A DNA stretch of 63,222 nt, filler included, from Sluysia triapertura (Eukaryota): assembly GCA_046118255.1 (NCBI GenBank). It is 5 parts of 5 records of this genome, joined end to end, with 100 filler letters (N's around TTAATTAATTAA, not from the genome) between each part and the next. Parts side by side here need not be neighbours in the genome. Positions count along the whole stretch, not along the records: positions 48,875 to 63,222 come from JBJNIA010262617.1; 4 more parts are not named here. One strand, given 5' to 3'. The translations under genes were made by a program, and so were the position numbers. Below are positions 7,661 to 63,222 of this stretch, in pieces (the first letter of the stretch is position 1; each line of letters begins with the position of its first letter). Under the pieces are notes generated by a model. The model was not told the DNA's origin. It did no database searches and saw only the letters and a program-made list of their open reading frames with translations.

Positions 7661-9590
7661 TAATAGATATTAAAGCAATATAAATTGCTATATTAGCACA
7701 TAGACTCATTCGAATTCGGAATTTTGAGCGCACTTTGATTAACTTTTCTTTAATGACTTCTATCCATGATTATCTACTCTTTCATGAACTTCTACTCTTT
7801 CTCAAAAGATATACAACCTGCTAATCATTAAGCTTTTGTGTGCGGCTCAAAAATCTTCGTTATGATTATTGATTTTAAAATCCTTAAATCAACGAGAATT
7901 TGACTATATAACATTAATCACGTATATTTATTTACACATCTAAGTGACTGTTTTGTTAGTGGTTACTTTTATATTTATAATTACTTAGATTACATTTCAT
8001 GGTTAAACAGTTATGATACAGCTTAACTAGGCTGAACAAAAATATTTACTTCATTACTATTGCAACACTTTATCGACGTCTTTTAATTTTAAGATACTAT
8101 GAATAATTTTTATTTCGTTTAAATTCTATCAGTTAAATGCATTTATAATTAGTTTATGTATCGTTTGTGTATCGTGAAAATTCCTTTAATCGTTCCTGTG
8201 TTGCTGGAAATGAACGTGCAAACTTATTAAATTAGTTATTTAAATTTTAAATCTTTAAATATCTATACTCAAAAGTAAATAACACATTAAAGCACATTCA
8301 ATGAAGAATAAAACAAATGTATAATACAAATGTGGTGGCTCAATTCATAAAATATAATTTTACCAAATCATCATTAGCACTCATAAAAGATTCAACATAA
8401 TCTTTAATCGTAATTACACATTCTTAGATAACCAAATAGTTCTTTGTAGATTCTATTTTTCAAACATTTTAAATTAATTAATTCACAACGTTATTCATCA
8501 AAGCATTTCAACTTTAAGCCATTCAATTATAAGGTCATATTAAGCAATTTTATACTACATATTAAACATTTCATATTTCATATAAACTTTTATTATAAAT
8601 TATTCAAATAGATTAATAGCATTAATAATATTGTAAATACTTTATACCTTGTACTTTATTCCTTTGAATTATGAACAAAATATTGATTATTTATTGATTA
8701 TTGATTATTATTACTATTTCGAATTGGTATTAATTATTTATTATTATTTGAATTATTATTATTATTTTGAATTGGTTATTATTATTGAAACTTTGGAAAA
8801 TTATTTTTGAATTTTAAAGGTATGATTTTAAAATTTTAAAATTATTTAAATTAATTCATGATTATTTAAAGATTTTAATTATTAAAATTATTTTTAAACT
8901 TGTGTGAACCTAAATCAATGAATTTTAATTATTTTAAATATTATTTTCTTTGTTTTAATCTGACTAATGTCAGATTAAAACAAACTATAAATACATTAAT
9001 GAAAATGTAACAAAGACACAACAAATTTCTTGTTTATAAATCTTAATTTTGTTCGAGAGTTGATTTTGTTTCCAGTTATTATTCAAAACATTGAACGGAC
9101 CATTCACTTTGTTTAGGATCACGTTAGATTAATTTTTATAAGGCAAGATATTCACTGAATATCGTAAGCAAAATACACTAAAAATCATTGCTAATAATTG
9201 GGATCTTATAAAGATCCAGAGAAAAATATTTTATAAAATCTTATTACGATTGTGAACTAACTAATTATATTTAGTTGTACGTAAATTTTATACTTACTAT
9301 TATATTAATTATTCTTTAATCTATTATATACATTAATTTTGCTAATAAAGTGTTCAAATTTGTTCAATTTTTATTATTATAGCTTCAAAATCTTAAAATT
9401 AATTGTCCAGAAGTTAATTCTAGTAAGTAAAATCTAATTTTTCTGATTCCATATAACGGAATCAACGTAACCTTATAATTTAAATTTGTTAAGTTTGACA
9501 TATAATTAAAATTTCAAGAATTTACCTCCAGAATTAAGGAGTTAGGTAAAATATCCATAGTTTAAAGTTAAGTATCTTTTTCTTACGTTA

Positions 9591-19664: not shown

Positions 19665-19786
19665 CATGATAATATTTGTTTGATGGTATGTTATGACTTC
19701 ATTAAATTAATGCGGCGATTTAATTTTAGTAAGACATAATATGTACTATTATAAAATTATTAAGAATTTAAACATTTATTTAGTCA

Positions 19787-20614
19787 ATGCCTAAGCCATT
19801 ACCGACACTTCCATTATACAATGGTTCTACACAATATAAAGCTATTCCTGCACCTCAGCCCCCACTATCGAAGCCTCTTTCACTTAGCACAGTAGCACCA
19901 CCTGCAATCTCTTATAATAAGCCGTCAATTACCAATAATAACCCTAACACGAATGTTGGATTTATTTCGACCAATGCATCAATACCATTAGGTAATAATA
20001 ACACCAACAACACAAATTTTAATAATAATTTTAAACCAATACCATCGAACCAGATGCTTAATAATGTTTCTGTGATTAGAAAAAAAGCAGACCCTCCACA
20101 ACCTATTCCATCAAGCAATTTGAGAAATAATCGAGTAGCACCTCCAATTCCAACAACAGCGTCATATTCACAGCCAAGCCAACAACAAGCAACAACAACA
20201 ACATCATCAGTGAAAAATGTTTCTCAAACTCGCCTTTCCATTCCAAATATTTCGACAAATAAATCTTTTTCACCTGATTCACTAGATACTGGAATTCCAC
20301 CACCTGTTCCAATGCGAGCTCCATTACAGAATTATAACAGAGGGCATAATTCCGATTATTCTACTGTAGGATTGCCATCAAGACCATCTCTAATGGATCG
20401 AAAACCGCCACCTCCACCACCACCACCATTTCAACAACCGCAATCTATGTCATCTAATTTATATCAGACATCTCAAATAAAGCATCAAAGTTACCAATCA
20501 TCATTCGATCAAAAATTCCACTTTCCTCCAAATTCCTTGTTCCCACCACCAAGTCAAGTGCTTAATATGCTGCAGAATCAAAAAGATCATTTGTCGAACT
20601 CAGCGGTTTACTAA
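19787..20614 (+). CDS. Proline-rich WIP/verprolin-like protein, probably the last exon
   Basis: 275-aa Pro-rich ORF with a polyproline run. C-terminal SFDQKFHFPPNSLFPPP resembles the WIP WASP-binding motif (ESRFYFHPISDLPPP). An AG acceptor lies just upstream and no WH2 domain is visible. Confidence 0.65.
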   Translation: MPKPLPTLPLYNGSTQYKAIPAPQPPLSKPLSLSTVAPPAISYNKPSITNNNPNTNVGFISTNASIPLGNNNTNNTNFNNNFKPIPSNQMLNNVSVIRKKADPPQPIPSSNLRNNRVAPPIPTTASYSQPSQQQATTTTSSVKNVSQTRLSIPNISTNKSFSPDSLDTGIPPPVPMRAPLQNYNRGHNSDYSTVGLPSRPSLMDRKPPPPPPPPFQQPQSMSSNLYQTSQIKHQSYQSSFDQKFHFPPNSLFPPPSQVLNMLQNQKDHLSNSAVY

Positions 20615-47775: not shown

Positions 47776-48874
47776 GTATAGAAATGATTATCCAAATTAT
47801 TTTTATTCAATTATCGACAAAGGAAAATATCTTACGAGTGAATTTGAAGATATGTTAAGCTTCTCGGAATTTTTATGAATTATAAATGTATAATAATGGA
47901 TCAAAATAAACAACGGCAACGTAAGATGTTTCATATTTAATTACTGAGATTAGAAATGGCCAACAAAATTTTTAAAATGATTGAAATTAAAGATAATGCC
48001 AATTAAGTTAAGCAAATTCATGAAAATGTATCATTTTTAACTGATAAAGAGATTGAACATAAGGTTAACTAGATGATTGAAATTAAAGATTATGTCAATA
48101 AAATTAAACAGATCCATGAATAAATACTGATTATAATTGATACAGAGATCGAACATGACTTTAACAAAATAAACGAGTTCGAAGACAAACCTAAAATAAA
48201 GAAAGCCATCCAAGAGAGTAATCAATATAGAAAATAGAAACAAGTTAAGAAATCGATGTTTAGTTCCGTTGGTTTATTGAAACAAATGCTTATGAAATTG
48301 AAGTTAAAGAATGAAGTATGTCCTTTTAATTCTGTCTGTTTTATTTTATCTGTCTTATTCATCATAACTATGGTTTCTCAATAAGTTTTGTATTATCTAA
48401 AATATATTTAAAGTTTATGGAAAATATATTAGACTTTGTTTATTATGTTAATTTTATATTTTTTGAAAGTTTTACTATAATCCATTCTTATAGAATTACC
48501 ATTACTAAATATAATTTTTTAACAATAATTTTATTAAATAATTTTATAATAAGTATAAATAAGACAAATATATATCCTTTCTTGGCTAATTAAGTATAGC
48601 AAACTAAATTCTTACTTCTTTTTCTTTTATTATTGTGGAATGTATTTATCAGTTGTTTCGTTTCCTTTTTCAAAATTTCAAGTTCTTATTGCGTTTGTTG
48701 AAGATAAAAAGTTATTTATTTTATTAAATAATTATTTATTATTAAAGTTATTTCCTTACAATATTATTATAGATNNNNNNNNNNNNNNNNNNNNNNNNNN
48801 NNNNNNNNNNNNNNNNNNTTAATTAATTAANNNNNNNNNNNNNNNNNNNNNNNNNNNNNNNNNNNNNNNNNNNN

Positions 48875-49513
48875 CTTCATTTTCTTGACACCCCCTCCTT
48901 GGAGAGAGAACGTGTCGGAGATCCCACCGACTAATCCTAGTCTCTTAGGCTCCTCTGTAGATGCATGGAACGCCCTCAACGGACTGTAGTACCGGCGCAC
49001 CTGCCACCCTTTTGCTCCTGACACATGGATGAGTGTCCCCTCCATGAATTTATCCTCACAGGAGGGACAGTACCTTAGAAGGGTTCCATCCCATGTACAG
49101 GCGCAGTTGTGGGGCTTCACTCCTTGTTTGTCCCACTGGGTGATCATTGCCACTCTTGGCAGCATTTCAACACGGCACCTTCCACACACATAAGCATCCA
49201 TAACTTTCACCGGTTTGTGGACCAAACCTTTGAATTCTGTTCTTGGGTTCTCCTGGCTCTTAGGCCTAATTCGTCCGGGGCCTTCCCAGCGAACCACCAA
49301 TTCTGCCTCTCTTAGGCAGATCACGCAGTTATTTTTTATCTCTCTCCATTCTACTGTTTCTCTCTCGGATGACAGGTATCCTTTTCTGGCATAAGCCAGA
49401 GTAATGAGGGCCCTTCCTGCCAAAAGACCACTCGTGGTTCTCCGAAGTGTGACCAGCCCATACACCGTGGCCAAGCGGAGGTAGGCTGGCTGGTCGCTGA
49501 GTTCGTTGGCCAT
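48875..49513 (-). CDS. orf3, Cys-rich protein after pol (213 aa visible, runs off the contig end)
   Basis: ATG 4 nt after the pol stop. Motifs CVIC, CGRC, HNCAC, CPSC. Confidence 0.7.
48883..48926 (-). promoter_or_regulatory. Second copy of the PPT/att box (AAGGAGGGGG then TGTCAAGA)
   Basis: 44 of 44 nt identical to 58332-58375. Confidence 0.9.
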
Positions 49514-49517
49514 TCTT

Positions 49518-52500
49518 TTAATCCTGGTTCTCCTTAGTCGGAATTGGTTTAAGCTGTTCCACTCCTTGGATTCCTCTCTTCTCTAGTAGGACAGTGTTTC
49601 TGTCGAGTATTTCAACCACTGTGTCTACTTCTTCGTACTTAGGCTTAACTGCTGATGACCCAGGCTGCTCTCGTGCCTTTATCCATACCTGTTGTCCGAC
49701 ATGGAATGAGGTCGGGGAGGGAGATCGCTCCTCCTTATCCTTCCGGCCCCTCCCACTCTCTTCCGTCACAAAGGGGCGTTGATTGAGCTCCTCTGAGGGG
49801 GAGGGTCTACCGGCTCGAGGCCTATCATTCAGGGCTTGTGCAATCTCCAAGGCCTTAGTGCTCCAATCCTTACTGTTAGCATTTTTTGCTATCCAGTTTT
49901 TGATAAGGCCTATTGCACGTTCAACTACCCCGTTGGCTTGAGGTGTATAAGGTGGCGAATAAACCCTCATTACCCCATTTTTCTCGCACCAGCGATTTAC
50001 CTGAGCATTTTTGAAATGTGTCCCATTGTCTGTTCGTAGCTCTTTTGGGAGGCCCAGGCTACTGCATACCTGGTCCAGCATGGACACAACGCTGCTCCCA
50101 TTAGCTTTCCTTACTGGTTTGACAATAACATAACCAGACTTGGAGTCCACTAGCACTAGGAGGTATTTTTCTCCCCTCTTACCAGTGACTCCCATCGGGC
50201 CGGCCACATCCATACACACTGATCCCCACGGTATGGTGCTCTTTATGGTCAGCCCTTCTGTCCGTTTTCCTCTTCTCCCTGCGTTATGTTTCCCGCAGGT
50301 TTCACATGTCTGTAGCTCTTGACAGACTCTTTTCACCGGAATCCAGAGGTCCAGCTTTTCCAATTCCTTACGTGTGGGTAGTACTCCGGCATGTCCTAAG
50401 GCCTCATGCACAGACTGTACTACCTTACTCACGTATTCTTCTGGGACCCCTCTTCCCTTGGGGGTTCTGTCCCACTTCTCTCCTCCTATAAGGACAATTT
50501 TTCTTTGTTGTACAAAGAGGTCTATTTCATTATTACCTTTCCAGTAGGCGCCCTGCTTTGTGTGCGCCTTTTGGTGCTGTATTTCCAGGTCTAAATTCAT
50601 TCTCATTTCGGCGATTTTCTTCCATAGGTCATGATGTGCGATTAATTTCCCTCGTGCTGATTCAAATCCATTTTCTTCCCAAATGGACAAATCTTCTTTC
50701 AGAGCTTGGGCGCAGTAGTAGCTGTCTGTAACAATTTTAGCTGCCTTGATTTTTCTTTTCGTGAGCTCGAGCAGACCTTCTAATATTGCAGTTACTTCAC
50801 CGGCTTGTGCGCTCCCTTGAACGCGCCCTTTTTGCCGGTGACATTCTTTGTCGTTTAACTTCAGGATGAACCCCCAATAGGCCGTTTGATCCGGTCCTTT
50901 TCGGGATCCATCTGTGTACAGAGTCCATTCATATTTCTTTTCCTTGACTTCTTTGGTTGTTACCTTCTTTTCGGCAGGTTGTGTTGGGCCAATTTCGAGA
51001 TCAGGGTCTAACAGGATATCTTCCCATCGCCCCCATCTTGTGTTGGTGGCTTTAGTGCTCTCTATGGTGCCTTTTCTCAGGTACTTATGTACCTGACTCT
51101 GGGTTATCACCTTTATCGGCTGTCCTTGGGCTAGGTCCTTCAAGGTGCCCCAATATTTAGCTAAGACAGCCAATTCTTTTTCTTCTTGGGGAAATTTCTT
51201 TTCCACGGGTGTTAGTGTGGTACTCCACAAGGTTACTAATCCACCTTGGTCGTTGCTGACTTTGACCATGGCGTCTTCACCTTCACATACAATTTCAGCC
51301 ACTAATTTGGAGGTTAGGCTCCTTGGTTCGAGCCTAACTGCATCTTGGATTACCTCTTTTAGTTTTTCCAGGTCTTGCTGGTTAGTTGTCGTCCAGCTCC
51401 AGGCTTTCTTGGGATTTACACCTAATTCTGTTTCCCTTTTCTTTAGACAAGCATATAGAGGTTTTGCATACTTCTGGTATCCTGGTACATGGTCACGTAC
51501 ATAATTGCAGAGCCCTAATATTTTTTGAAGGTCATTCTCATTCTTCGGTGGCTGGATTTGATGTATTTTTTCTCTGAAGCCTTCTGAGAGTCCCAAGTCT
51601 GTTGTTACTTGGAATCCCAGATAGTTGACTTTGAATTGACCGAATTGACATTTTGCTAGATTGAGCTTCAATCCTGCAGCTGAAATCCGCTCCACCACCT
51701 TCCTCAGCTTCTGTAGGTGTTCTTCTTCGGTGTCATCTGCTATGAAGACATCGTCAATGTACACAGAGGCTCCTATGTCTCCCAGAACCTCTAGTACAGC
51801 TGATTGAAAGACATTTGGGGAGTTTTTGTAGCCTTGTGGCAGTCTTTGCCAAACATAGCTTTTACCTTTGTGAGTAAAAGCCGTTTTGCCTTGGGACTGC
51901 CTCGCGAGCCTCAGGGAGAAGAAGCCATTTGCTAGATCAATGCAGGATTTATACTTTTTAACTTTTAACGTTTTCAGGGCTCCTTGGGGGTTGATTAGGC
52001 TGGCCCTGTTGGCAACTGTTCTTCTGTTCAGCGCCTTAAAATTAATGACAGGTCGCCAACCCCCTCCTGCGGACTCTGGCTTCTTCACCGCTTGAATAGG
52101 GCTGTTAGTTATAGGGTTTGTCTCTTCTCTGATGATCCCGAGTGCACTCAATTCTCTCACGATTTTATCCATCTCTTCTACAGCACCTGGATTTAGCGGG
52201 TACTGTCTCACTGGTGGGTGCACTCCTCCTTCTATGTGATGGATGAATCTGGGACCCAAATCTCCACAATCATTTTTAAATCTTGCAATTTTCGCAGCTT
52301 CAATTATATGTCGGAGCTCCTCTTTTCCAGCCGGGGAGAAGTCGCTGTCCTTCAACTTTTGTTCCGTTACTTCTGGTATATTTACAGTTTTGTACCATTC
52401 TTCTTTGAGTTTTTCTGTGTTGGTGGGGCCCAGTTTAACAAGTCTTGATTTAAGGATCGTTAGCCTCTTTACTTTTGTCCCTTTGGTTTTTCCTGGTTTG

Positions 52501-52763
52501 TTTAAGACTTCTAAGTCGCTTACTGTTATTAAGTTATATGGGCCTTTTATCCAAATTATCCCTTTCCAAAATCCGTATGGCATTTCTTCAATTGAACCAT
52601 TCGCTAGCTGAACGGTTAGGTGTCCTTCGGTTCTTAGGCTTTTCCGGGTCATTGACACCTCTGCTCCTGTGTCCACCTGGTAAGGGACTCCACTTACTTT
52701 AGTGTAAATTTCGTCCCCCTCCCAGTAGGCATTCTCCAGTGTGACCCGGGGCCTTCGAGCCAT
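49518..52763 (-). CDS. pol: Pol polyprotein: protease, RT, tether, RNase H, integrase
   Basis: DTGA; IDLANGF (DLANGF as in foamy RT); LPQGYKNSP; YIDD; RNase H YTDGS/AGE/TDSYY/GNNEID; integrase H-x4-H...CxxC and D, D(35)E (MDVAG, TDNG, VER). Confidence 0.98.
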   Translation of the reverse strand: MARRPRVTLENAYWEGDEIYTKVSGVPYQVDTGAEVSMTRKSLRTEGHLTVQLANGSIEEMPYGFWKGIIWIKGPYNLITVSDLEVLNKPGKTKGTKVKRLTILKSRLVKLGPTNTEKLKEEWYKTVNIPEVTEQKLKDSDFSPAGKEELRHIIEAAKIARFKNDCGDLGPRFIHHIEGGVHPPVRQYPLNPGAVEEMDKIVRELSALGIIREETNPITNSPIQAVKKPESAGGGWRPVINFKALNRRTVANRASLINPQGALKTLKVKKYKSCIDLANGFFSLRLARQSQGKTAFTHKGKSYVWQRLPQGYKNSPNVFQSAVLEVLGDIGASVYIDDVFIADDTEEEHLQKLRKVVERISAAGLKLNLAKCQFGQFKVNYLGFQVTTDLGLSEGFREKIHQIQPPKNENDLQKILGLCNYVRDHVPGYQKYAKPLYACLKKRETELGVNPKKAWSWTTTNQQDLEKLKEVIQDAVRLEPRSLTSKLVAEIVCEGEDAMVKVSNDQGGLVTLWSTTLTPVEKKFPQEEKELAVLAKYWGTLKDLAQGQPIKVITQSQVHKYLRKGTIESTKATNTRWGRWEDILLDPDLEIGPTQPAEKKVTTKEVKEKKYEWTLYTDGSRKGPDQTAYWGFILKLNDKECHRQKGRVQGSAQAGEVTAILEGLLELTKRKIKAAKIVTDSYYCAQALKEDLSIWEENGFESARGKLIAHHDLWKKIAEMRMNLDLEIQHQKAHTKQGAYWKGNNEIDLFVQQRKIVLIGGEKWDRTPKGRGVPEEYVSKVVQSVHEALGHAGVLPTRKELEKLDLWIPVKRVCQELQTCETCGKHNAGRRGKRTEGLTIKSTIPWGSVCMDVAGPMGVTGKRGEKYLLVLVDSKSGYVIVKPVRKANGSSVVSMLDQVCSSLGLPKELRTDNGTHFKNAQVNRWCEKNGVMRVYSPPYTPQANGVVERAIGLIKNWIAKNANSKDWSTKALEIAQALNDRPRAGRPSPSEELNQRPFVTEESGRGRKDKEERSPSPTSFHVGQQVWIKAREQPGSSAVKPKYEEVDTVVEILDRNTVLLEKRGIQGVEQLKPIPTKENQD

Positions 52764-55700
52764 TACTCAGCCGCTCCCCTGGTTCCCTGTTGACGGGAAT
52801 CTCTCAGGGCAGTCTTTTGTTCTGGAGTCAATTTTTCCCACTCTTCTCTTGGCAAGAATGTACTTTTCTTTTGTTGATTCTGCGGGGCATTAGGAGCTGA
52901 GAATCTCCTTGGTGTGGGTTGGGATCTCTGAGGCTGTTGTCTAGGTGCTGGCCCAGATATAGGTGCCCTACTTTGGGGCGTGGCGGGCTGCTTTACAGCC
53001 GCCTTAGTTTGTGGTCTTTGGTTCTGGGCTGACCCTTGCTCCCTTCTTTGTTCAAAATACTGGTGTTCCAGATCATAGGATGTGACTGCCGCATCTATCT
53101 GGGAGAGCTTGGTGCCATGTATGGGCATTTTTACAAAGGTGAGTTCTCCTCTCCGCCCCTTGGTCACCATCCTTAGGGCTTTGACATACCGGGACGGGGG
53201 AATGCTCTGTTGCAGTTGATGCCACACCGAGCGTAGGCGTAACCCCTTGTCCAGTCGTTTTCTGGCCCTTTGGATTTGGGCGTCTTCTTCGTCCTCATCC
53301 TCCAGGACCAGCCTTTCATAATGCTCCTGGGCCGTTTCGTTTTTGTTTATTGGCACTGCAGAAATGTGAGAGAGCCATAATCTTTTAGCCCCCTCACTTT
53401 CTGTGGAGCTGCTCACCAGGGGCCACACATCTTTGATGTAGCTTTCTTCCCCCTCCTCTGGTCTCCTTTCTCTTATCAAGATTTTGATCTTTTTGTACTC
53501 TCTGAAGTCATCCGCCTGTGAGCTGGCCATTTTGATGTTTTTATCTGGTTCTGGTTCAGGTTTAACAGAGACATTAGATGGGGGGTTGTATTCATCCTCC
53601 TCTTCCAGGAGAATGTCCTCATTTACCTTTCTTTCTGTTTCCTTGGCATAGCCATAAGCGGCCTTCTTCATTTTCCTTAACAGGACGTCGTGTGCGATGC
53701 CCATATAAGCCAGTCTGAAGTTCGCCGTTATGGGCTGACAGGCTGCGAGGGTAGGAAAAGAGGGCATCATGAGGATGTTAGCCCATTCCCCTACAGTGGC
53801 TTTAACTTTCAATTCCACCTGTTCTTCTACTCTCCCCTGCCACACAGGTGGAATGTCATAGTCTCTTTGCCCTGCTTCGGGGACATAGGCTTTCCGCTCG
53901 TCGATGGTTTGCAGAGGTCCCCATACTAGCTCTCTGGCCAGTCTTTCGGAGGCCCGGAGGACATCAAACACTTCCACCTGCTTTTTCGTCCCTTTCCGTT
54001 GAGCCATCCGAAGCTGCTTTCGGACAATCCCAGTCTGGGCCGCTACCGACCCCATGCTCATGTCATCATCGGAGTCATTGTCACAGGTGTTTTCCTGTGC
54101 TCCCTCCGGATTTCGGTCCTCCACACTCTCTAGGTCCTCACGTTCCAGTCGTTCACACTCATTCAGGGGTTTCATTTTCACTGGGGCGCTTAGCATCAGT
54201 CCTTGCCCTTGTTGTTGATTTACCTCACTCATTTCTTCAACTCCGGGGCCGCAGTCCTGTTGGTGCCACGCCGTGGACTGGGACGGCTGAGGGGATTGAT
54301 AGTCGCGGGGTCCCCACTGTCGTTCTTGGTCACCCTCAGGACTGTCGGGCTTGGCTGGCTGGCTGAGTTCTTTTGGTCTAGGTTCTTGCCTGTTTAGTGG
54401 CGGTAGGGCCCGATTTAATCGGTCCTGATACAAGTTTGTGGCTGTCACCACCACAATTTCCTTCAAGGATCCTGCCACATGCATGATCTTTGCGGTGTAA
54501 TTCATGGACTGCACAGCCACTTTTTCCGCTACTTCCCAGGGTAGATCATTGGAGCGCAGGCCACACACGCAGAGCACCACTCTCCTGAAGCCTCTGCTCA
54601 TGGCCTCATTCAAACCCCTTTCAATGACTTGCAGCATGAGTTTTTGATACTTGCTTAGATCATATTCATTTTGGTAGGGGATTATCGGCGCATGGATGAC
54701 AGCATAATATGGGAGGTTGGCCCCACTTGTGAGTTTTACTTCATCATCCTCTTCACTCTTTTTCTCTTGTCTCAGCTCTTTAATTTCTTTTTGGTATTCT
54801 TTGCCAGCCACTTTGGACAATTTTTTCCTGAAATTGGTGTTGAGGATCTTGTAATTGGGGTTGGTGAAAACCAACAGTCCGTCTCCTTCAATTTCCCAAG
54901 GGTCACCTATGAACTGACACAGGCGCATCCCGTTTTGCATCTTTATTATCTTGGCTTTCACCGGTATTGGGGCTAGCATGGCCTGCATCCCCAAATCCAG
55001 TGTCGCCAGATTCCTCTTTTTGTCCAGGGGCTTCACATAATCGGTTAGGGGCCTTGGGGATTTTTTGTAGCTTGGCCCGGCTTGGTGGTAATCAGCCAGT
55101 ACCACTTTGTCTTCCTCTTGGGGGTCTTCCAAGCTGGTACTTTGGAACTGATAAGTTAGTTGCTTTACTGCCGTAGGGGTTTTTCTTGTATATTCTTTCT
55201 GTTGTTCTTTCATCATGCTTTTCAGTCTCTCCATTCCTGTACGTGAAAAGGGGTCCTGGGGCTCTTGCGGGGTTGACTTATGTCTATGAGGGGCCTTTTT
55301 CCCTTCATTTACCATTTCAAAGGAGTCTGACACCGGGGGGCCCCGGATGGGTCTTGGGGCCCTCTCCCGGGACTCCTCCATCTGCCGTTGAAAGGCCTCC
55401 TCTTTTTGGGGATCAGCCTCGGCGTCATCAGTCCTAAAGGGATTGAGGGGACCCTCTTCTGAGTCACTTATCTCAATCACGACTGATTCCACCGGCTCCC
55501 CGATGCCCCCATACCTCTTGTGGTCACTTTCTCTGTTTCCCTCATCGTGCCGCTGCTCTTCACTCTGCGTCGGCAACTCACATTGGCTGATTTGGTCTGC
55601 GTCCAGTGGAACGTCCTCTATTTTTTCCCTTTGATACTCAGCCAGCTGGTCCCAGAACTCTTGAAACTCTGCATACCGGGGGGCTGCTTTGGTCTTGGAG

Positions 55701-56161
55701 TTTACAAGGACATACTGGAGACCCGTAGCCTTAGCAGTCATTTTTACGACCGCGTCGTATTTTTCTGCTGGGCTTATTAGGGTCCTTATCCTTCTGTCCT
55801 TCCAGGCCATTAGCAGGCCTGTCCACCATTCCAGCCACTCCCTGATGCCGTCCCTTTTGTTCAGTTTGAGGGGATGCTTGACCACGGCCAGCCTCGCTCC
55901 AGCATAGGCTTTTGGACCTACATACGCCTGGTGGTCTCGCATGTAATCCTCCAGCTGCCGTTGGGCCTCAGAGGGGTCAAGTCGCACGTGGTAGATGACC
56001 AGTGTTCCTTTTGCTTGGGGGTTCCATTCATGGCTCCCCTCGCCGTAGAGCATTACCTGGTAGGGGAGATTGACCTCAGCCTCCGCGTTCCCGCGGGATC
56101 TTGATAGCTGGGTCTCATCCCCTACTCCTTTCCATTCCTCATCCGATAGCGCTTCTGCCAT
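52763..56161 (-). CDS. gag: Gag-position polyprotein (1132 aa from the first ATG) with an internal macrodomain
   Basis: Lies between the PBS and pol. First ATG at 56161 in ACGATGG context (the ORF track starts at an upstream TTG). No CCHC knuckle; Q/P/R-rich tail. Macro-like segment at ~54435-54930. Confidence 0.85.
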   Translation of the reverse strand: MAEALSDEEWKGVGDETQLSRSRGNAEAEVNLPYQVMLYGEGSHEWNPQAKGTLVIYHVRLDPSEAQRQLEDYMRDHQAYVGPKAYAGARLAVVKHPLKLNKRDGIREWLEWWTGLLMAWKDRRIRTLISPAEKYDAVVKMTAKATGLQYVLVNSKTKAAPRYAEFQEFWDQLAEYQREKIEDVPLDADQISQCELPTQSEEQRHDEGNRESDHKRYGGIGEPVESVVIEISDSEEGPLNPFRTDDAEADPQKEEAFQRQMEESRERAPRPIRGPPVSDSFEMVNEGKKAPHRHKSTPQEPQDPFSRTGMERLKSMMKEQQKEYTRKTPTAVKQLTYQFQSTSLEDPQEEDKVVLADYHQAGPSYKKSPRPLTDYVKPLDKKRNLATLDLGMQAMLAPIPVKAKIIKMQNGMRLCQFIGDPWEIEGDGLLVFTNPNYKILNTNFRKKLSKVAGKEYQKEIKELRQEKKSEEDDEVKLTSGANLPYYAVIHAPIIPYQNEYDLSKYQKLMLQVIERGLNEAMSRGFRRVVLCVCGLRSNDLPWEVAEKVAVQSMNYTAKIMHVAGSLKEIVVVTATNLYQDRLNRALPPLNRQEPRPKELSQPAKPDSPEGDQERQWGPRDYQSPQPSQSTAWHQQDCGPGVEEMSEVNQQQGQGLMLSAPVKMKPLNECERLEREDLESVEDRNPEGAQENTCDNDSDDDMSMGSVAAQTGIVRKQLRMAQRKGTKKQVEVFDVLRASERLARELVWGPLQTIDERKAYVPEAGQRDYDIPPVWQGRVEEQVELKVKATVGEWANILMMPSFPTLAACQPITANFRLAYMGIAHDVLLRKMKKAAYGYAKETERKVNEDILLEEEDEYNPPSNVSVKPEPEPDKNIKMASSQADDFREYKKIKILIRERRPEEGEESYIKDVWPLVSSSTESEGAKRLWLSHISAVPINKNETAQEHYERLVLEDEDEEDAQIQRARKRLDKGLRLRSVWHQLQQSIPPSRYVKALRMVTKGRRGELTFVKMPIHGTKLSQIDAAVTSYDLEHQYFEQRREQGSAQNQRPQTKAAVKQPATPQSRAPISGPAPRQQPQRSQPTPRRFSAPNAPQNQQKKSTFLPREEWEKLTPEQKTALRDSRQQGTRGAAE

Positions 56162-56336
56162 CGTGTTCCTGTCCTTATAGAAGTCGTTGGTCTCCAAAAG
56201 TCTCCTGGCCGCGGTTCCAGGTCAGAGATGGGAGCCAACTGTTGTTTGGCTACTTATCCCACTCTTTGGGGGCGTATGCCACGCCCAGTGGGATCCTCCT
56301 TCCCCTCCTGCGTGCCACGCAGTTCCTGTAGGGGTC

Positions 56337-56362
56337 GGTGACCAGCGGCCTAGCTAGTCACC
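56337..56362 (-). promoter_or_regulatory. Candidate dimerisation/packaging hairpin
   Basis: GGUGACUAGC-UAGGCC-GCUGGUCACC: 10-bp stem with a GGCC palindrome in the loop, located between the PBS and gag. Confidence 0.55.
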
Positions 56363-56479
56363 TTGCGATCCGCTTCCTTTGCTTGCTGATCGCCGCAGTC
56401 GATTCCAATCGACCGTTTCCTTTCCTGGAGGGTTTCCACCTGTCAGAAAAGACACTGAGGGTCCCCTAAAACCTTTGGG

Positions 56480-56497
56480 GTCCCTGTTCGGGCGCCA
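56480..56497 (-). promoter_or_regulatory. Primer-binding site, tRNA-Lys3
   Basis: TGGCGCCCGAACAGGGAC, the same 18-mer as the HIV-1 PBS. Confidence 0.96.
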
Positions 56498-58339
56498 TAA
56501 GACTATCCTCGTGTTAGCACAGTCTTCAGTTTACCTGTAAAACACACAAGTCTAAAAACTGTACAAAATGTTGTCACTCCTCCGTCTCTGGGGTTAGGAT
56601 GTTCTTCAAACGCGGACAGGAGGTTCCTGATCCACTGATGAGAGCACCTGCTCGAGTGACCTGGGGAGAGGGGCTTATCCTAGCAATGGCTGCATTCATC
56701 TGTAGGATATATCCCTGTTTCATTCAGATTAAATACCTCTTACTGAGTAGCCTGGCCGAGAGGATTCAATCCAAAGATCCTACATTCACTGCAGTCCCCC
56801 TCAGTGATAGCTGCACTTGTTACCGGCTAGGAAGTATTTAGTAACTTGGATTTAAGTTACTGGGATATTATTTTAAATTCCTTAATCTACTAAGGCAACC
56901 GATAAGATTAACAATTCTTTTGATGTTGTGAACTCAGTTTTACCATTTACCACATTTATTTAGGGATCATTACTCCCATAGACATTACTTCAATCATTGA
57001 ATGTCCACACATGATAATTTAGAATTTTAAAATGCTTTGCTTTTATTAGCTTTGCTTTTAGCAGGGGGTTATATGGTTACAAATTGTCATTGCAATACAT
57101 AAAAATGTTAACAATCTTGATTAATAAATTCACTCTTTCCCTAAGCTGAATAACCATAAAATAAATCAAATGAAAATTCGTTCGAATGAGCTCAGAGCTA
57201 GGGAGTGATCAACCATTACCTCAAGTAGTTGACTCATCCTAGAAGCAACTTCAAGCTTAGAAGCCCTCCAATCTTTAGATCAGCAGGATGGACGATGGGT
57301 TCTTCCTCCTTAAAGTGCTACAGCCTGTTGCTGCTGATCATGAGCTTCTGTCTTGAAATCCGTTGCTGTAATTCAAACTCTGTGCCTCTGCAAGCACCAG
57401 TTTTTCCAGCTTCTGAGTTCTCCAATCCTTTCGAACTCAGATCCTCTTCAGTTGGTGTCCTGATGGCTGCATCTGTTGCTGAGCACTGGAGTGAAGTTCG
57501 GGGTAGAGCCGATGAAGCACCCCGATGAAGAACCGGGCTCTTAAGCCATACAGTCCTTTTTATACTATTAAATTACATGAGTGTGTATGTGCTGTACTTC
57601 ATGCACCAATCATTTAGTTTTTGCATTACCTCAGTTTGCATCAGCCTCAACTTGTAACAATTTGGTTGGTCAAGGTCTCTCAATCTCCTCCCAAATGAGC
57701 TCATCCGACACTTACAACATTTCATACTTTCCCATTATCTCATTGTCATCCTTTTAACTGATAAAACACATTTAGCAATCATCTTTGTCCTTCTATGGTC
57801 AAAACTAATTACTTCGTTTTAAAGTTTACCAAAATCAAAACTGATTACATTGTGTAAAATCATTCTTTCATAACTCCTTATAATCATCTTCACACAGTGA
57901 TCAAAACATTCTTAAAACATTCTGTCTAAGAGTAATACAATGATTTACTACAGTGATAAGTTCATTAATCAATCAGTTACCCCTTTTTAAGAGTAATACA
58001 ACCATTCATAAAAATCATAGATCATAAATCAGTTACTTTATCTTCTAATGTTTTATTATAAGAAAAGGAATATAGTTTTGTCAAGTTCTGCTAAGTTCTG
58101 CGTTGCCTGCTGCTCAGCTCCTGCTTACTTTCAGTTCCTCAATTTGGCCGCGCAGAGGTCTGACTCACCCTGCATCTGGAATGTCCCTATCTTCTCCTAC
58201 TCATGATCTCATGCGTGTGGCAATATCACAACCGTTATATTCTCCAACATGCATTTTATTCTTATATACAACTTTTAGTCTCTTTTTTCCCTCCGACACG
58301 GAAATCTCCAACCTTCTCATGTTCTCCACTATCTTGACA
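56498..58339 (-). repeat. LTR (~1.84 kb), single copy in the window
   Basis: Starts TGTCAAGA right after the PPT and ends at the PBS. TATAAAAA at 57557-57564; AATAAA at 57042-57047 and 56955-56960. No second copy is present to confirm the boundaries. Confidence 0.82.
57557..57564 (-). promoter_or_regulatory. LTR TATA box
   Basis: TATAAAAA with an inverted CCAAT ~45 nt upstream (57606-57610). Confidence 0.7.
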
Positions 58340-59710
58340 CCCCCTCCTTGGAGAGAGAACGTGTCGGAGATCCCATCGACCAAACCGAGATGGTCGTCGT
58401 TGGTGTGGAGAGCGGCTTCTAGGAGATTTCTCGGAAAGATCACCTGCATCCATGCGGGACGAGACTGTAGGTGGAGAACGGGATGAAGAGCGGGGCAGAG
58501 ACCCGCGGTCTTGTCCAAGTACCGACTGAGAAGGCCAATCCCAGCCGTTCCTGCGGTACCAGGAAGCCGGGGCTGTAGGGGAGGTAGGGCGTTGCAGAAA
58601 GCGACGGTCAAACCAGGTAGAGTTGGACGAGCGTCGTTTTGATTTCTTTCTTGAACGAGTACCTGGGGCTCGGGAACTTGCTGTGGCATGGGGTTGAGCT
58701 GGTGTAGGGGGGGCCGTGATGTCGGATGGCGCAGGAGAAAACACAAAGGCATCCGCCTGTAGTTCCCCATCCTCACGCTGTTCCTCACCCTTCGTTGGAG
58801 TGCTAGGGGGAGTTACAGGGCCGCTGTTGTCTATCAGGGTCGCCTGTTGCAGCGCTGCCACAGCTGCTCTGGTTTCGTCGTCAGACGGAGCGGGTACTGG
58901 GTCAGGCGAGGCGACCGAGGACTTATCACCAGCGCAGGGGATTGACTCCGGAGAGCTGACAGGACTTAAGTGTTGGGTTGATAGAAACACTTGCCTATTA
59001 GAATCAGTGGCCGGTTGACAATGGCTGTGGACAGGGTCAGGTCCCAACGGGTGAGTGTTAGGGCCATCCAGAGAGTCCTGCTGTGGGCGGTCGGTGCATA
59101 CCAGTGGTGTGAAGACTGGATCGTCGAACATGTCCAGCCAGTTAGAGGGAAGGGGTTGGAAGTCTTCCGCTTTGATGGTGGGCTGAGGCTGTAACATGGA
59201 AGCCAGAGCGCCAGGTTGCTCAGGTGAATGCGTTGAGCCGGCTTCGGAAGTTAGAGCCGGGGACGAACCTGAGATGCTGCGGATGGCCACCATTGTGTCA
59301 GACAAGGTGTGAAGACTGACATAGACCTCCTCCGTGTTGTGGGCCCTCCACACTTTCTGCGTCAAGGGGACGAGCAGGCCGTTGCTCCCCATAGATGGAA
59401 TACTGGGGCAGCTAACTGGATCATCCCAGGAGGAACACCACAGCAGACCACAATTGCGTTGCACCGCTCCACAGGTTTCAGCCGGGACTGTCGGGCCATC
59501 GTACAGCGCTCCACGACACAGGATGGAACTGGCCAGGGGATAGGCAAAAGCGCTGTTGTAGCATTGGTCACACCAGTATGCATGTCGATAACCCCACATG
59601 AATGGGTGCTTGCCAGCAGCAGAGCGACAGAGTCGACATGAAACGCTGAGAGCCTGTAACATAACAGAACTTGAACAGAAAATGCCACACAAAATCAAAA
59701 AGAAAGTCAT
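58262..59710 (-). CDS. Accessory protein: Cys-rich N-terminus, S/P-rich middle, basic NLS and RS-rich tail; overlaps U3
   Basis: 482-aa ORF with CRLC, HAYWCDQC, RSRKKSKRR and KSPRSRSP. Candidate splice acceptor TTACAG|G at 59654. Confidence 0.75.
   Translation of the reverse strand: MTFFLILCGIFCSSSVMLQALSVSCRLCRSAAGKHPFMWGYRHAYWCDQCYNSAFAYPLASSILCRGALYDGPTVPAETCGAVQRNCGLLWCSSWDDPVSCPSIPSMGSNGLLVPLTQKVWRAHNTEEVYVSLHTLSDTMVAIRSISGSSPALTSEAGSTHSPEQPGALASMLQPQPTIKAEDFQPLPSNWLDMFDDPVFTPLVCTDRPQQDSLDGPNTHPLGPDPVHSHCQPATDSNRQVFLSTQHLSPVSSPESIPCAGDKSSVASPDPVPAPSDDETRAAVAALQQATLIDNSGPVTPPSTPTKGEEQREDGELQADAFVFSPAPSDITAPPTPAQPHATASSRAPGTRSRKKSKRRSSNSTWFDRRFLQRPTSPTAPASWYRRNGWDWPSQSVLGQDRGSLPRSSSRSPPTVSSRMDAGDLSEKSPRSRSPHQRRPSRFGRWDLRHVLSPRRGCQDSGEHEKVGDFRVGGKKETKSCI
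58340..58349 (-). promoter_or_regulatory. 3-prime polypurine tract
   Basis: AAGGAGGGGG immediately before the TG that starts the LTR. Confidence 0.88.
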
Positions 59711-59779
59711 AAAAGCAGACTGTCCCTATATATATATATATATGAATCAAAAATGCACATGCAGCGAGAGCCTATATAA

Positions 59780-61255
59780 TTAAGAATCATTATTCTGTCT
59801 GCGTTGGCGGATGGATCTGAGCCACACAGAGTCAAGAGGAGGCGAGGACTCAGGCGGAGGTGGTTCATGTAGGGCCGCTGCATCAGTGAAGAAGGTGGCG
59901 TAGGTCATGAACCAGGCAAGGATAGGCATTTCACTGATCAAACCTAACCAGTACAGGACTGCATAGATTCCCCAGACTGAGCCCCAACAAAGCAGGGCTA
60001 TGAATTTCAGCAACCACTTGTGCTTCAAGTGGCCTTTCAGGGCGCAGATTTGTCTGCCGATGTAGAAGACCACCCCTGCTGCCAACAGAGCTTCCCAAAG
60101 GGCCAGGAAGATGCGTTCAGGGGTGTAACGGCCATGGGGCTGTAGGGCATGAGGGAGTCTGACCAGCTCAATGATCATGATCAGGCTGTCAATCAGAACC
60201 CAGGACCCCAGCATTCCCATCTGGATCATGTTGAGTTTCACCCGGCCCTGCATGTAGGTTATGAAGAGGGGTAAGGCCAGCTCTTGCTTTTTGGCCAAAC
60301 CATAGAGGATCAACTTCAGGTAGCTTTGTCCAGCTGTGAAGAACCGCATGGGTTGATAGTAGGTCCAGATCCCGGAGTGGCAGTAACAGAACCAAGCGAA
60401 CAGCAGAGTGTAATACTCAGCTGTGGTAACTTCAAATGGGGTCGGCCCGGTCTGATCTTTGTCGGGGAGGGTTTGGTTGATTACAATGGTTCTTCTGCTG
60501 CAAACTTCTGAGTCTGGCAGCTCCGTTGAGTTATTAGAATCGTCACCCTCCCCTGCAGACCGTCGTTCAGGCACTGACCCGTCTTCATCGCTGGTCTGAT
60601 TCCCAGGGATAGGGGCTGCAGGACTCGGGTCCGCCGGTGGCTGGGTCGGTGCGGCAGATAAATCTAAGTCTGCTTCCGACGAGCCGACCTGTCCAGACCC
60701 TTCCATTTCAGGACTCGGGTCCGCAGGTGGCTGGGTCGGTGCGGCCGATGAATCTGAGTCCGCTTCCGACAAGCCAAACTGTGCAGACCCATCCTCGTCC
60801 CCGATGTCAATCCTTGGAGGGATGAGGTTGGTCCTGTCCGCCGCTGAGGGAGAATGTCCGTGTGAAGAGTCAGGCGTGCCGGACTCATTCAGCTCGGCTT
60901 GGCCAACCTCAGGGGCTTGGTGCCCAGGGACCGGGTACAACCGGGTCGACTCTTCTTGTGGAGAGTCAAGACCATGGGACCCAGTCCGGTTGGGAAAGCC
61001 GTCCTCAGCAGCTGAGCGATCATGTCCTTGGTGCACAACTGCGGGAGCAGGGGTTGCTGGAGGCGGGGTTGTTGCCTCGTCGTAGTCATCGTAGTCATCC
61101 GCCGCAGCTGCGTCCAAGGCCAGACGCAAGAGCGCGTCTGAGTCTGAGGAGTTGGGATCAATTGCGGTTCCCGAGGGTCCGGTATGTTGCTCCAGGTCCC
61201 CTAGGGTGAAAACAGAGATCATGGCAGCGATGATACTCACAGCCCGTAGGTCCAT
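59780..61255 (-). CDS. Accessory membrane protein: signal peptide, acidic mucin-like stalk, about 5-6 TM segments
   Basis: 491-aa ORF starting MDLRAVSIIAAMISVFTLG; ~250 aa rich in D/E/S/P/T; several hydrophobic segments in the last ~210 aa. Confidence 0.8.
   Translation of the reverse strand: MDLRAVSIIAAMISVFTLGDLEQHTGPSGTAIDPNSSDSDALLRLALDAAAADDYDDYDEATTPPPATPAPAVVHQGHDRSAAEDGFPNRTGSHGLDSPQEESTRLYPVPGHQAPEVGQAELNESGTPDSSHGHSPSAADRTNLIPPRIDIGDEDGSAQFGLSEADSDSSAAPTQPPADPSPEMEGSGQVGSSEADLDLSAAPTQPPADPSPAAPIPGNQTSDEDGSVPERRSAGEGDDSNNSTELPDSEVCSRRTIVINQTLPDKDQTGPTPFEVTTAEYYTLLFAWFCYCHSGIWTYYQPMRFFTAGQSYLKLILYGLAKKQELALPLFITYMQGRVKLNMIQMGMLGSWVLIDSLIMIIELVRLPHALQPHGRYTPERIFLALWEALLAAGVVFYIGRQICALKGHLKHKWLLKFIALLCWGSVWGIYAVLYWLGLISEMPILAWFMTYATFFTDAAALHEPPPPESSPPLDSVWLRSIRQRRQNNDS
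60621..60800. repeat. In-frame 90-nt tandem duplication
   Basis: Two GGACTCGGGTCCGC... units at 60621 and 60711, encoding GS.Q.G.SEAD.D.SAAPTQPPADPS. Confidence 0.92.
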
Positions 61256-61371
61256 GGCTTTGGGTAGGTATTGATGAAAAGTGGTTTGGGGATTTCAAGC
61301 GAGAAGTTTCTTCGTCCTGTGCCTTCCTTGTCCTCAGCCCGAATGCCTCTCCGTCCTCCTAGACTGTGCTT

Positions 61372-63222
61372 TTATGTGCGGCCAGCGCCCTGCTCTGGGA
61401 GGAGGGGCTCCTGGCTCCTCCCCCCTGGGCGTGACATTGTCTGGAGTCCCACCTTCAGGGCTATCTTTACAGTTAGCACAGCTGCAAAGATGCCTGCGAC
61501 CGCTAGGCAGTACGGCCACAGTTTTTCAATCAAAGTAATGGCCCAACTTTCCACCGCATTTGCTGCTTCACCCAAGACTTCAACAGTGTCATGGGCCAGG
61601 TTCTTGACATTGCGATAAGTGGAATGGGTCAAGGTTTCATACCACGCACATGTGTGGCGGTCGGTGTCAGGTCCGCATTTCTTCCAAACTTCTTCTGGGT
61701 ACTTACAGGTCAGATTTGAGTAGAGCAGGTTGGGGCCTACCCATTCAAATCCTGTGGTCTCTTTCCCCAGACAGAGGCCGCGTCGGAAGGCATGGCCCTC
61801 CGCTAGAGCTATCATGGAGTCTTGTACACCGGGTAGGATGACCTGCACAAGGCGTTTCCGATGTCTCAGGCGATGCCCAAGAATTCCATTAATACAGAGG
61901 TGGAACATCGGGAAGGAACGTCTCCAAGTGACATTGTCCGCAGTGCGGTCCCATACAACCTCAGCTACATGGGTGTCATACTCATTGTTGTAGAAACTGT
62001 TGCAGTAGCTTTCCCAGCCGGGCAACTCAGAGCACGGTCGTCGTGCCAAACTGACAGTGCAGGAGTGTTCATTTTCACATTCCATTCTCCAAGGTCGTGG
62101 GTGAACATACCTCTCAGGGCGATATATCGCTGTAGACCAGATGTCGTGTTCTTTTGAATACACAGTTGCAATGTACTGATATTTTACCCAATAGTTGTTG
62201 GAGAGGGATAGGCAGGGGAACACCCAATGTTCCATCTCTTCACGTTGGAATCCCCACCAAGTCCTAGTGACATCCCGCTTGTGACCTTCAATCCAGCCCT
62301 GGAGCAGTTCTTTGGTGGTATTAGATGATAGGATGCCACTGCAATCGTACCTCCATGTTGAAACAAAGGAGATATCGACTTGCCACAGGCGGCATCGAGG
62401 AGAAGCTCCATTAGCTATCCATTCTGTGTCATTAAGGCTGTTAAAGATGCGGTTTGCTACGCATTTGTCGATCTTCTGGAAGTCGCCTTGAGGCACGTGT
62501 CTTAGGTCGTCTGGTGTGGGAATTTTCTGGATGTACATGTCAGAGTGGTAGGGGCCTTGGAAGCCATGATGGGTACGTGAGTATCCCTCTGCGAAGTCCC
62601 CTTCATAATGGAGCACCTGGTGCTCAATCCACACCCAGGGAAAACTCGCATTGAGCCAATCTTCATGCATTGCATTGGTAGGGCCAAAGGTGGCCCTCCA
62701 GGTAAAATAATAATAACTCTGAAACCACAAAGGGGTAATTACCATGTAGTTCGTTTTCTTGCATGTAACCCAGAGGTTCCACAGGCATGGTGATAGGGGC
62801 TTAACTTTAGCTGCGCAGGCTTGGTCGTCCGGGTTTGTGAACGAGTTAGACCGATGAATCACCCGCGGTTTTTGCTGCTTGGGGACTGGCCGGTGCTTGG
62901 AATGGTTCGCGCTTCTGTTAGCCAGTAGAATATTAATGTGTTGAAAGTGAGCATCCACAGCCAGAATAGTGTCATTATGGGGCAGGCGATTTGGTTTCTT
63001 GACTGTATGATGGATGACACTAGGCTTGGTTCTACTCACGTTTTTTGGAGGTATTTTATCGCACGTCAGGTTGTAGTAGCCCCAAAAATCCCATCTTGGA
63101 AGAATGGTAGTGCAAACAATGTGTTTATGGGGAGCACCATACACAACCTCTCGTTGCCAGTAGCCTTGATGATTAAGGCCCGGGAGGGGTGTACATCCCC
63201 AGTCACAGTGCCACTCAGGAGA
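61372..63222 (-). CDS. Env-like type I membrane glycoprotein, 5-prime truncated (at least 616 aa)
   Basis: The frame stays open to the window edge. About ten N-x-S/T sequons, Cys/Trp-rich, basic cluster RLRHRKR, C-terminal TM (YCLAVAGIFAAVLTV) and a short tail. Confidence 0.75.
   Translation of the reverse strand, partial: SPEWHCDWGCTPLPGLNHQGYWQREVVYGAPHKHIVCTTILPRWDFWGYYNLTCDKIPPKNVSRTKPSVIHHTVKKPNRLPHNDTILAVDAHFQHINILLANRSANHSKHRPVPKQQKPRVIHRSNSFTNPDDQACAAKVKPLSPCLWNLWVTCKKTNYMVITPLWFQSYYYFTWRATFGPTNAMHEDWLNASFPWVWIEHQVLHYEGDFAEGYSRTHHGFQGPYHSDMYIQKIPTPDDLRHVPQGDFQKIDKCVANRIFNSLNDTEWIANGASPRCRLWQVDISFVSTWRYDCSGILSSNTTKELLQGWIEGHKRDVTRTWWGFQREEMEHWVFPCLSLSNNYWVKYQYIATVYSKEHDIWSTAIYRPERYVHPRPWRMECENEHSCTVSLARRPCSELPGWESYCNSFYNNEYDTHVAEVVWDRTADNVTWRRSFPMFHLCINGILGHRLRHRKRLVQVILPGVQDSMIALAEGHAFRRGLCLGKETTGFEWVGPNLLYSNLTCKYPEEVWKKCGPDTDRHTCAWYETLTHSTYRNVKNLAHDTVEVLGEAANAVESWAITLIEKLWPYCLAVAGIFAAVLTVKIALKVGLQTMSRPGGRSQEPLLPEQGAGRT

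Follow-up and report, generated by a model that had tools for sequence, protein, structure and literature searches.

The 63,222-nt stretch of DNA analysed here (the window) carries a percomorph foamy-like endogenous retrovirus in which gag and pol meet in a TAATG stop-start overlap. Because the overlap is kept in related fish viruses, ribosomes likely restart on pol after gag, and we give about an even chance to the reading that Pol is made by coupled termination-reinitiation at TAATG, independently of a TURBS. Reviews (PMC9143442, PMC8278194) give three retroviral routes to Pol: frameshifting, read-through and the spliced mRNA of foamy viruses. Stop-start coupling, if true, would be a fourth. 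It would also be an example, from a vertebrate, of ribosomes reinitiating without a TURBS once they have translated a very long ORF (1132 codons). The wider proposal, which we hold slightly more tentatively, is that in percomorph foamy-like retroviruses Pol arises by coupled reinitiation on genomic RNA, with switching between UAAUG and AUGA and a structure at the pol start; this could be an intermediate between a fused Gag-Pol and the free Pol seen in mammalian foamy viruses. The origin of Gag-independent Pol expression in foamy viruses would thereby become testable with a short reporter fragment. The lineage is deep-branching, and its spread among fish may be continuing (PMC12642411). Our literature search found no proposal of coupled reinitiation for fish foamy-like viruses, and the available parts of the main text of PMC5210030 and PMC5512871 do not discuss the mode of Pol expression; the supplements of PMC5210030 and PMC12642411, outside this search, may annotate the junction or its transcripts.

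The element is assigned to the AcERV/AciFLERV type on the basis of its sequence. Gag residues 700–1132 are 43–47% identical to fish proteins, and Pol is 56–77% identical to 16 of 25 database matches. In a PDB search, the best solved relatives of Pol were foamy PR-RT structures, Peptidase A9/Pr125Pol chains (E = 1.6e-80), and a DTG protease motif can be read off the translation. In a Pol tree built without an orthoretrovirus outgroup, the element falls in a ten-row clade with percomorph ERV Pols (support 97/99). The PBS, which we take to be of tRNA-Lys identity, diverges from that of AciFLERV after the first eight bases. LTR mapping placed the PPT at 58349-58340 and a TATA box at 57564. The piece bearing the element is 50% GC, is joined to AT-rich DNA by an N gap, and is probably stray fish DNA; a tRNA gene search found none.

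Downstream of pol, orf3 (its match to P0008, E = 0.005, is too weak to establish homology to acc3) runs for about 200 codons before it enters a second purine tract (48900-48891) and the start of an LTR, followed by the N gap. The AcERV type has accessory ORFs between pol and env, then env and 3' ORFs. In this window, orf3 follows pol yet enters the PPT, and the env-like ORF and two further ORFs sit upstream and belong to another copy. These three ORFs gave zero Pfam matches, and the env-like label is a tentative one, suggested by position, cysteines and a C-terminal hydrophobic stretch. A Lokiretrovirus identity was considered and set aside, since Pol matches foamy viruses best and Pfam recognises nothing in the env-like ORF. 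The initial annotation was right about the short gap between the pol stop and orf3; as a second coupling site, however, this gap was rejected, because the corresponding gap in AciFLERV is 21 nt and the arrangement is not conserved.

Table 1. Features of the element and of the neighbouring copy (positions in the window).
Feature	Position	Strand	Remarks
orf3	48875..49513	minus	start 4 nt past pol stop
pol ORF	52763-49518	minus	1081 aa, PR-RT-RNase H-IN, own ATG
Predicted stable RNA structure, pol start	52640..52763	minus	-47.5 kcal/mol, z -3.12
TAATG stop-start	52761..52765	minus	gag TAA 52765-52763, pol ATG 52763-52761, common base 52763
Pol-frame TGA	52767..52769	minus	two codons upstream of pol ATG
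Closest AUG above the pol ATG, at a distance of 127 nt	52828..52890	minus	opens 20-codon out-of-frame ORF
GUGGGA, TURBS motif-1 look-alike	52836..52841	minus	encodes Trp-Glu; not conserved
Splice-acceptor-like site	52880..52902	minus	11/16 pyrimidines, CAG; just below last upstream AUG
Macro domain in Gag (aa 447-549)	54515..54823	minus	Pfam PF01661, E 3.3e-09, above cut-off
gag ORF	56161-52763	minus	3399 nt, 1132 aa, includes Macro domain
PBS, presumed tRNA-Lys type	56480..56497	minus	
LTR, ~1.8 kb	56498..58339	minus	begins TG after purine tract; 3' end approximate
Upstream copy, 3' half	58262..63222	minus	
482-aa ORF, upstream copy	59710-58262	minus	
491-aa hydrophobic ORF, upstream copy	61255-59780	minus	
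Putative env-like ORF, upstream copy	61372 to window end	minus	

The one-base overlap of the gag TAA and the pol ATG lies exactly where the initial annotation had placed it. The pol ATG is in a good context (G at -3 and +4), and a single sense codon separates it from the TGA in its own frame, which closes the frame to -1 frameshifting. With this stop only two codons ahead of the pol ATG, neither frameshifting nor read-through fits. The two slippery-type heptamers in 52900-52680 (at 52839 and 52711) are out of gag phase, and read-through of the TAA would add 22 gag-frame codons and miss Pol, in agreement with the earlier claim that no such signal is present. Fused Gag-Pol gene models do occur in databases (P0112-P0114, P0010, P0115), but the three Siganus models omit ~14 residues from the Pol N-terminus together with the conserved tail of Gag, as predicted introns would. 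Given this omission, the pol-frame stop at 52769 and the lack of an in-phase slip site, a Gag-Pol fusion, whether through frameshifting, read-through or the splicing-out of a small intron, is highly improbable. (P0115 is a distant relative among the fused models.) There is no AUG between 52879 and 52764, and the last 600 nt before the pol ATG hold nine AUGs, with 7.4 expected. The stop-start overlap is backed by its recurrence in relatives, and not by a computed chance figure.

It had also been proposed that reinitiation may depend on a TURBS built around GUGGGA, ~70 nt upstream. The sequence is indeed there, with UGGGA (52840-52836) beginning 75 nt before the gag stop, inside the 40–90 nt TURBS zone (PMC3542737), and the stop and start lie within ~20 nt of each other, as in TURBS-dependent systems. 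Among the aligned contigs UGGGA also shows no substitution, although a single nucleotide is inserted into it in one of them. Its presence alone is weak evidence: gag contains five copies and pol eleven, and 9.7% of gag-pol positions have a UGGGA 40–80 nt upstream (16.6% for 30–100 nt), a chance occurrence of ~10–17%. Trp-Glu, which forces UGGGA, occurs in one of 17 Gag ends, bearing out the caveat that the motif may be no more than a by-product of these codons. Ten of the 12 relatives with a full Gag tail cannot encode UGGGA 30–100 nt upstream (it is codon-possible in the other two), and Xenoophorus copies carry the Val-Met signature described below without UGGGA. The first two bases were predicted to be paired in all three folding windows (at most 0.05 unpaired), and a helix enclosing UGGGA, of motif 2/2* type, was predicted in one of the three. 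The TURBS part of the earlier claim thus fell away, and we consider reinitiation through a calicivirus/influenza B-type TURBS at this UGGGA improbable.

The overlap itself fared better: conservation of TAATG in homologues, a check suggested at the outset, extends to diverged contigs and published relatives. No substitution in TAATG is listed among 47 aligned contigs. In these near copies 11 of the 46 positions in 52745-52790 vary, and invariance among them, taken alone, is weak evidence. Four diverged contig ends (runs X2 and X6), read by eye, keep TAATG in register while their flanks differ, and the AG immediately 5' of TAATG is absent in 54–100% of the depth in three of four runs. Read in the pol frame, G-TAA-TG gives Val-Met; the gene models P0043 and P0054 pass through Val-Met as they enter Pol, and a Val occupies the corresponding position of P0010. 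The starting Met of six other Pol proteins falls at the aligned position, and P0004 begins one residue earlier. Published coordinates place the end of gag and the start of pol of AciFLERV both at nt 5,220, a 1-nt overlap; for AliFLERV they give 5,191 as the gag end and 5,188 as the pol start, a 4-nt overlap that by arithmetic would be AUGA. (Both sets of coordinates come from reconstructed sequences, and the motif letters were deduced, not seen.) Overlaps of 1 and 4 nt are the two standard forms of coupled termination-reinitiation (PMC5972666). None of the other six AciFLERV junctions is a stop-start, with gaps of 21, 63, 29, 238 and 171 nt and one overlap of 25 nt.

The fish overlaps are not independent observations, because the lineages share ancestry. 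Furthermore, protein ends are generally conserved, so that coupling does not follow from a junction being fixed: the Gag tail is 25–26 residues long in 13 of 15 unfused Gag ends, and the Pol tail is three residues in 9 of 12, so that Pol C-tail length, taken as a control, does not set the constancy of the Gag tail apart. (The survey covered 92 proteins, of which 75 without the Gag end motif were unscored; of the 17 with the motif, two were fused models and two ended early.) The viral, metagenome and genome contigs searched yielded no fish-relative DNA for comparison of the junction or its fold.

The main rival is a spliced subgenomic pol mRNA in the style of mammalian foamy viruses, since the virus is foamy-like, a point that the initial annotation had missed, and belongs to a group in which Pol is known to have its own start. 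Here, an acceptor would lie in the last ~120 nt of gag, and TAATG would reflect inherited tight gene packing. In every foamy virus characterised to date, Pol is translated from a spliced mRNA (PMC9143442, PMC7828637). The acceptor-like site at 52880 is among the 13 top-scoring of the element's 869 AGs and would leave a 117-nt AUG-free leader, the LTR contains donor-like sites at 58168, 57629 and 57219, and the good context of the pol start would suit such an mRNA. However, the AUG-poor stretch upstream of pol, a criterion taken from two mammalian foamy control records (where the AUG closest above the pol start lies at -260 and -466, with three and four AUGs in 600 nt), is missing here (-127; nine AUGs). 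In three of the 12 full-tail relatives, an in-frame Met lies 8, 10 or 23 codons before the Gag stop, and on a pol mRNA with its splice site above them these AUGs would stop scanning ribosomes short. One diverged contig lacks the 52880 AG, though a pyrimidine run and another AG adjoin. Splicing also offers no explanation for an overlap that is either 1 nt or 4 nt and nothing else, and we regard it as possible but rather unlikely. None of the joints in the DNA contigs skips to the pol start, and DNA contigs are uninformative on splicing.

The start of pol is predicted to form a stable RNA structure. Only two of 200 shuffles, and none of 500 synonymous shuffles, were as stable, and the z-score is the lowest of 53 pol windows. 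Among 109 gag-pol windows it ranks third, with two others folding better, and the window is GC-rich (56% vs. 46%). Such a structure beside the AUG could help if pol were started without regard to where gag terminates, through internal entry, shunting or a promoter of its own, and foamy viruses do shunt for gag and have an internal promoter (PMC3542737, PMC9143442). Upstream of the pol AUG, however, no strong fold was found (z -1.53), an Rfam scan of 48000-63222 gave no match at E up to 1, and the lock between stop and start would be left unexplained; a start of this kind is likewise improbable.

Of the original proposal that Pol arises by reinitiation, a separate Pol is supported (own ATG, closed upstream frame, conserved start), and the coupling, minus the TURBS, is strengthened by the comparison with relatives. 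In coupled reinitiation as we propose it, the full-length RNA would serve as the mRNA for both proteins, and Pol would come free of Gag from ribosomes that terminate on gag and immediately begin again at the pol AUG. After termination, a small share of the 40S subunits would remain on the RNA and then reinitiate, and the rarity of this event could provide the low Pol:Gag ratio that frameshifting gives other retroviruses. The predicted pol-start fold may act as a helper element, by analogy with SART1. Free Pol would need packaging of the foamy type, mediated by RNA, which is known in mammalian foamy viruses (PMC7828637).

Compared to the teleost ERVs of the AcERV/AciFLERV type (PMC5210030, PMC5512871), the element has the same Pol clade, long LTR, Lys-type PBS, gggtg PPT-LTR boundary and ORF after pol, shares the 1-nt gag-pol overlap of AciFLERV, and has a gag of similar size (3399 nt, within their range of 3342–3411 nt). 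Among the differences, orf3 is not followed by env in this copy, and at 491 and 482 aa the accessory ORFs upstream are longer than theirs (234–253 aa). With the mammalian foamy viruses it shares a Pol apart from Gag with its own AUG, and they provide the closest solved Pol structures. Their genes, however, overlap by 50 nt in the +1 frame (both scored records; locus L003, with no assignable pol ATG, was left out of the count), and those of newt foamy virus by 125 nt, whereas the stop-start here is a 1-nt overlap in the -1 frame.

The closest likenesses of the junction itself lie elsewhere. In the victorivirus HvV190S, which reinitiates from capsid to polymerase, and in the hypovirus CHV1, structural and replicase ORFs are coupled through AUGA or UAAUG on one RNA without TURBS motif 1 (PMC3542737, PMC5972666), but these are fungal RNA viruses, and victoriviruses need an upstream 32-nt element, whereas no comparable upstream fold is seen here. 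Caliciviruses and influenza B share the UAAUG/AUGA geometry and, in this copy, a UGGGA at a fitting distance; unlike theirs, this UGGGA is neither conserved nor predicted to be exposed, and there is no steady motif 2/2* helix. SART1, a silkworm non-LTR retrotransposon, has UAAUG between ORF1 and the RT-bearing ORF2 and a downstream structure, as reviews citing Kojima 2005 describe; SART1 is a non-LTR element and its structure was shown by experiment, whereas the one at the pol start here is predicted.

The gag and pol genes of the foamy-like endogenous retrovirus meet in a TAATG in which the gag stop and the pol start share one base, and orf3 starts 4 nt past the pol stop; these features, and the position of the upstream UGGGA, are as the initial annotation had described them. 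Its view that slippery heptamers and read-through were lacking was also borne out, as the two slippery-type heptamers in 52900-52680 are both out of gag phase and read-through of the gag stop leads into only 22 gag-frame codons. Fused Gag-Pol gene models do exist in databases, but three Siganus models drop the Gag tail and the first strand of Pol and look like predicted introns, and a Gag-Pol fusion is very improbable. (The fused model of P0115, a related database protein, was left out of this judgement.) We give an even chance to the production of Pol by coupled termination-reinitiation independent of a TURBS, the UGGGA-based reinitiation element.

Features at the gag/pol junction, in window positions
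Feature	Position	Strand	Remarks
gag	56161-52763	minus	1132 aa; stop TAA at 52765-52763
pol	52763-49518	minus	1081 aa; start ATG at 52763-52761
GUGGGA	52841-52836	minus	UGGGA begins 75 nt ahead of the gag stop
TGA in pol frame	52769-52767	minus	closes the pol frame

The initial annotation had proposed TAATG conservation in homologues as a check; the stop-start arrangement proves to be conserved, on the evidence of diverged contig ends, Pol starts and published fish coordinates. Among 47 aligned contigs, 52761-52765 is invariant and 30 positions vary across 52700-52900; because 11 of 46 nearby positions vary, this invariance is weak by itself. Stronger evidence is the agreement of four loose contig ends of diverged copies (three single contigs and one majority of four), which, on reading by eye, carry the same five letters in register between differing flanks. 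Met occupies the same aligned start in six other Pol proteins and lies one residue earlier in the related protein P0004; in two further relatives, P0001 and P0005, the annotated start is a later Met. Two Xenoophorus gene models show Val-Met on entering Pol, the pol-frame translation of G-TAA-TG, and Val stands in the same position in the related P0010. According to the supplementary note of PMC5512871, gag spans 1,879-5,220 and pol 5,220-8,432 in the reconstructed fish virus AciFLERV, while in AliFLERV gag spans 1,955-5,191 and pol 5,188-8,403. By arithmetic on these reconstructed sequences, with the stop included and an ATG start, the overlaps are deduced to be UAAUG or UGAUG in AciFLERV and AUGA in AliFLERV. 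Coupled termination-reinitiation is described as having two forms of overlap, UAAUG and AUGA (PMC5972666, PMC3542737), and P0004, which is longer by one residue and begins Met-Lys, would also be compatible with AUGA. None of the remaining six AciFLERV junctions in the PMC5512871 coordinates is a stop-start. Fixed protein ends could also hold the junction in place, one length being common to 9 of 12 Pol C-tails.

The proposal that a TURBS drives the reinitiation did not hold up, and we consider it improbable; the UGGGA is not conserved in relatives. Among the 17 of 92 proteins examined that have the Gag end helix, the window's Gag alone has Trp followed by Glu or Asp, forcing UGGGA. A UGGGA 30-100 nt upstream cannot be encoded in any frame in ten of the 12 relatives with full tails and is possible in two, and chance occurrence in such a band is 10-17% of positions. 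Its first two bases are predicted to be paired (unpaired probability at most 0.05 in each of three folding windows), and one of the three windows predicts a helix that encloses the motif. Internal entry, as a source of Pol, we rate similarly low.

Synthesis of Pol from a spliced mRNA, described as the route in mammalian foamy viruses (PMC9143442, PMC7828637), is possible but on balance doubtful. An acceptor-like site at 52880, directly below the last upstream AUG, would give a clean 117-nt leader; its AG is missing in one diverged contig, which does have a pyrimidine run and another AG next to that place. Against splicing, an in-frame Met lies 8, 10 or 23 codons ahead of the Gag stop in 3 of 12 relatives (one in a Lys-Met-Val context, with purines at positions -3 and +4), and three of four runs lose the AG immediately 5' of TAATG in 54-100% of the depth. 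Two control foamy records have 3 and 4 AUGs in the 600 nt above pol (8.2 and 6.6 expected), the nearest at -260 and -466; the window has nine (7.4 expected), the nearest at -127, and this density, unlike that of the controls, makes a deep acceptor unlikely. Spliced leaders are suggested by acceptor-like sites at 56440, 56326, 57146 and 57486 (LTR and leader, minus strand) and by donor-like sites at 57629 and 57219 (minus strand).

RT, RNase H and integrase domains are recognised in Pol. Its best solved relatives are foamy PR-RT chains (E 1.6e-80, versus ~1e-27 for RT p80 entries), 16 of 25 database matches show 56-77% identity, the named ones among these being teleost proteins, and the window's RT lies within a 10-row clade with these matches (support 97/99, in a tree without an orthoretrovirus outgroup). 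At 3399 nt, gag is inside the 3342-3411 nt range listed in PMC5210030 for AcERV-type elements, for which the same source lists no conserved-domain matches. The Macro domain of Gag (ADP-ribose-binding fold; 54515-54823, minus strand; E 3.3e-09), matched more weakly in the relatives P0027 and P0115, is possibly, at a guess, an anti-PARP defence module. The order is env-like ORF, two ORFs, PPT, LTR, PBS, gag, pol, orf3, PPT, LTR start and gap; with 89% similarity between its two PPT regions, the arrangement has the appearance of one copy's 3' half and, after it, a copy with an internal deletion. In this tandem (58262-63222 and 48875-49513, minus strand), the first copy's 3' half has the LTR in common with the second copy, in which env is missing and orf3 passes directly into the purine tract, and a contig of sequencing run X2 links 48899 to 58332, as expected from the LTR-start similarity. 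A 491-aa accessory ORF (59780-61255, minus strand), for which a Pfam search gave no match, has a hydrophobic N-terminus, several hydrophobic C-terminal stretches and an acidic Pro/Ser-rich part that contains a duplication of 90 nt (repeat D8); accessory genes gave no membrane motifs in PMC5210030, and one is noted in PMC12642411.

The viral piece has ~50% GC and the remaining window 17-35%, and they are in contact only across an assembly gap of N's with a TTAATTAATTAA linker (48775-48874), beyond which the DNA is AT-rich; three further linker gaps of that type lie at about 11000, 24200 and 35700. As no host-virus junction exists in the window, the virus probably does not belong to this genome, and we infer that the piece probably consists of fish DNA wrongly joined to a scaffold of an invertebrate. 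Parts of it occur in 24 runs, each with a different organism code, nine of them containing at least half the words; four of those runs, examined in detail, hold many variant copies. Its origin has no bearing on the gag/pol junction. In the AT-rich part, a proline-rich 276-codon frame (19784-20614, plus strand), without a match in a Pfam search, resembles a host-gene exon of WIP/verprolin-like type.

The GC-rich first 120-124 nt of pol have a predicted fold of -47.5 kcal/mol (z -3.12; 2 of 200 shuffles), with the lowest z among 53 pol windows, none of 500 synonymous shuffles as good, and third place among 109 gag-pol windows under dinucleotide shuffling. As a possible lead, this fold may serve as a helper element for reinitiation in place of UGGGA. 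Strong predicted folds at 55981-55322 (5' gag) and 50483-50124 (integrase region), both on the minus strand, are candidate packaging or Pol-encapsidation signals.

The virus family is already known, as is the mechanism in other systems; their pairing appears to be undescribed. Our searches of the open-licence literature turned up no proposal that a retroviral pol is translated by reinitiation and nothing on reinitiation in teleost endogenous foamy viruses, and "splice" and "overlap" have zero uses in the main texts of PMC5210030 and PMC5512871 or the supplements of the latter. Newt elements differ in having a gag/pol overlap of 125 nt, as reported in PMC5512871, and mammalian foamy viruses in having one of 50 nt (two of two scored records). 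The foamy virus record L003 was left out of this count because no pol ATG could be assigned: within 2698-3372, ATG is absent at the expected pol start and throughout 2701-3371, possibly through an error in the record. Coupled reinitiation with UAAUG and downstream structure is known from SART1 (Kojima 2005, as cited in the reviews PMC5972666 and PMC3542737), and the same reviews describe capsid-polymerase coupling without motif 1 in victoriviruses.
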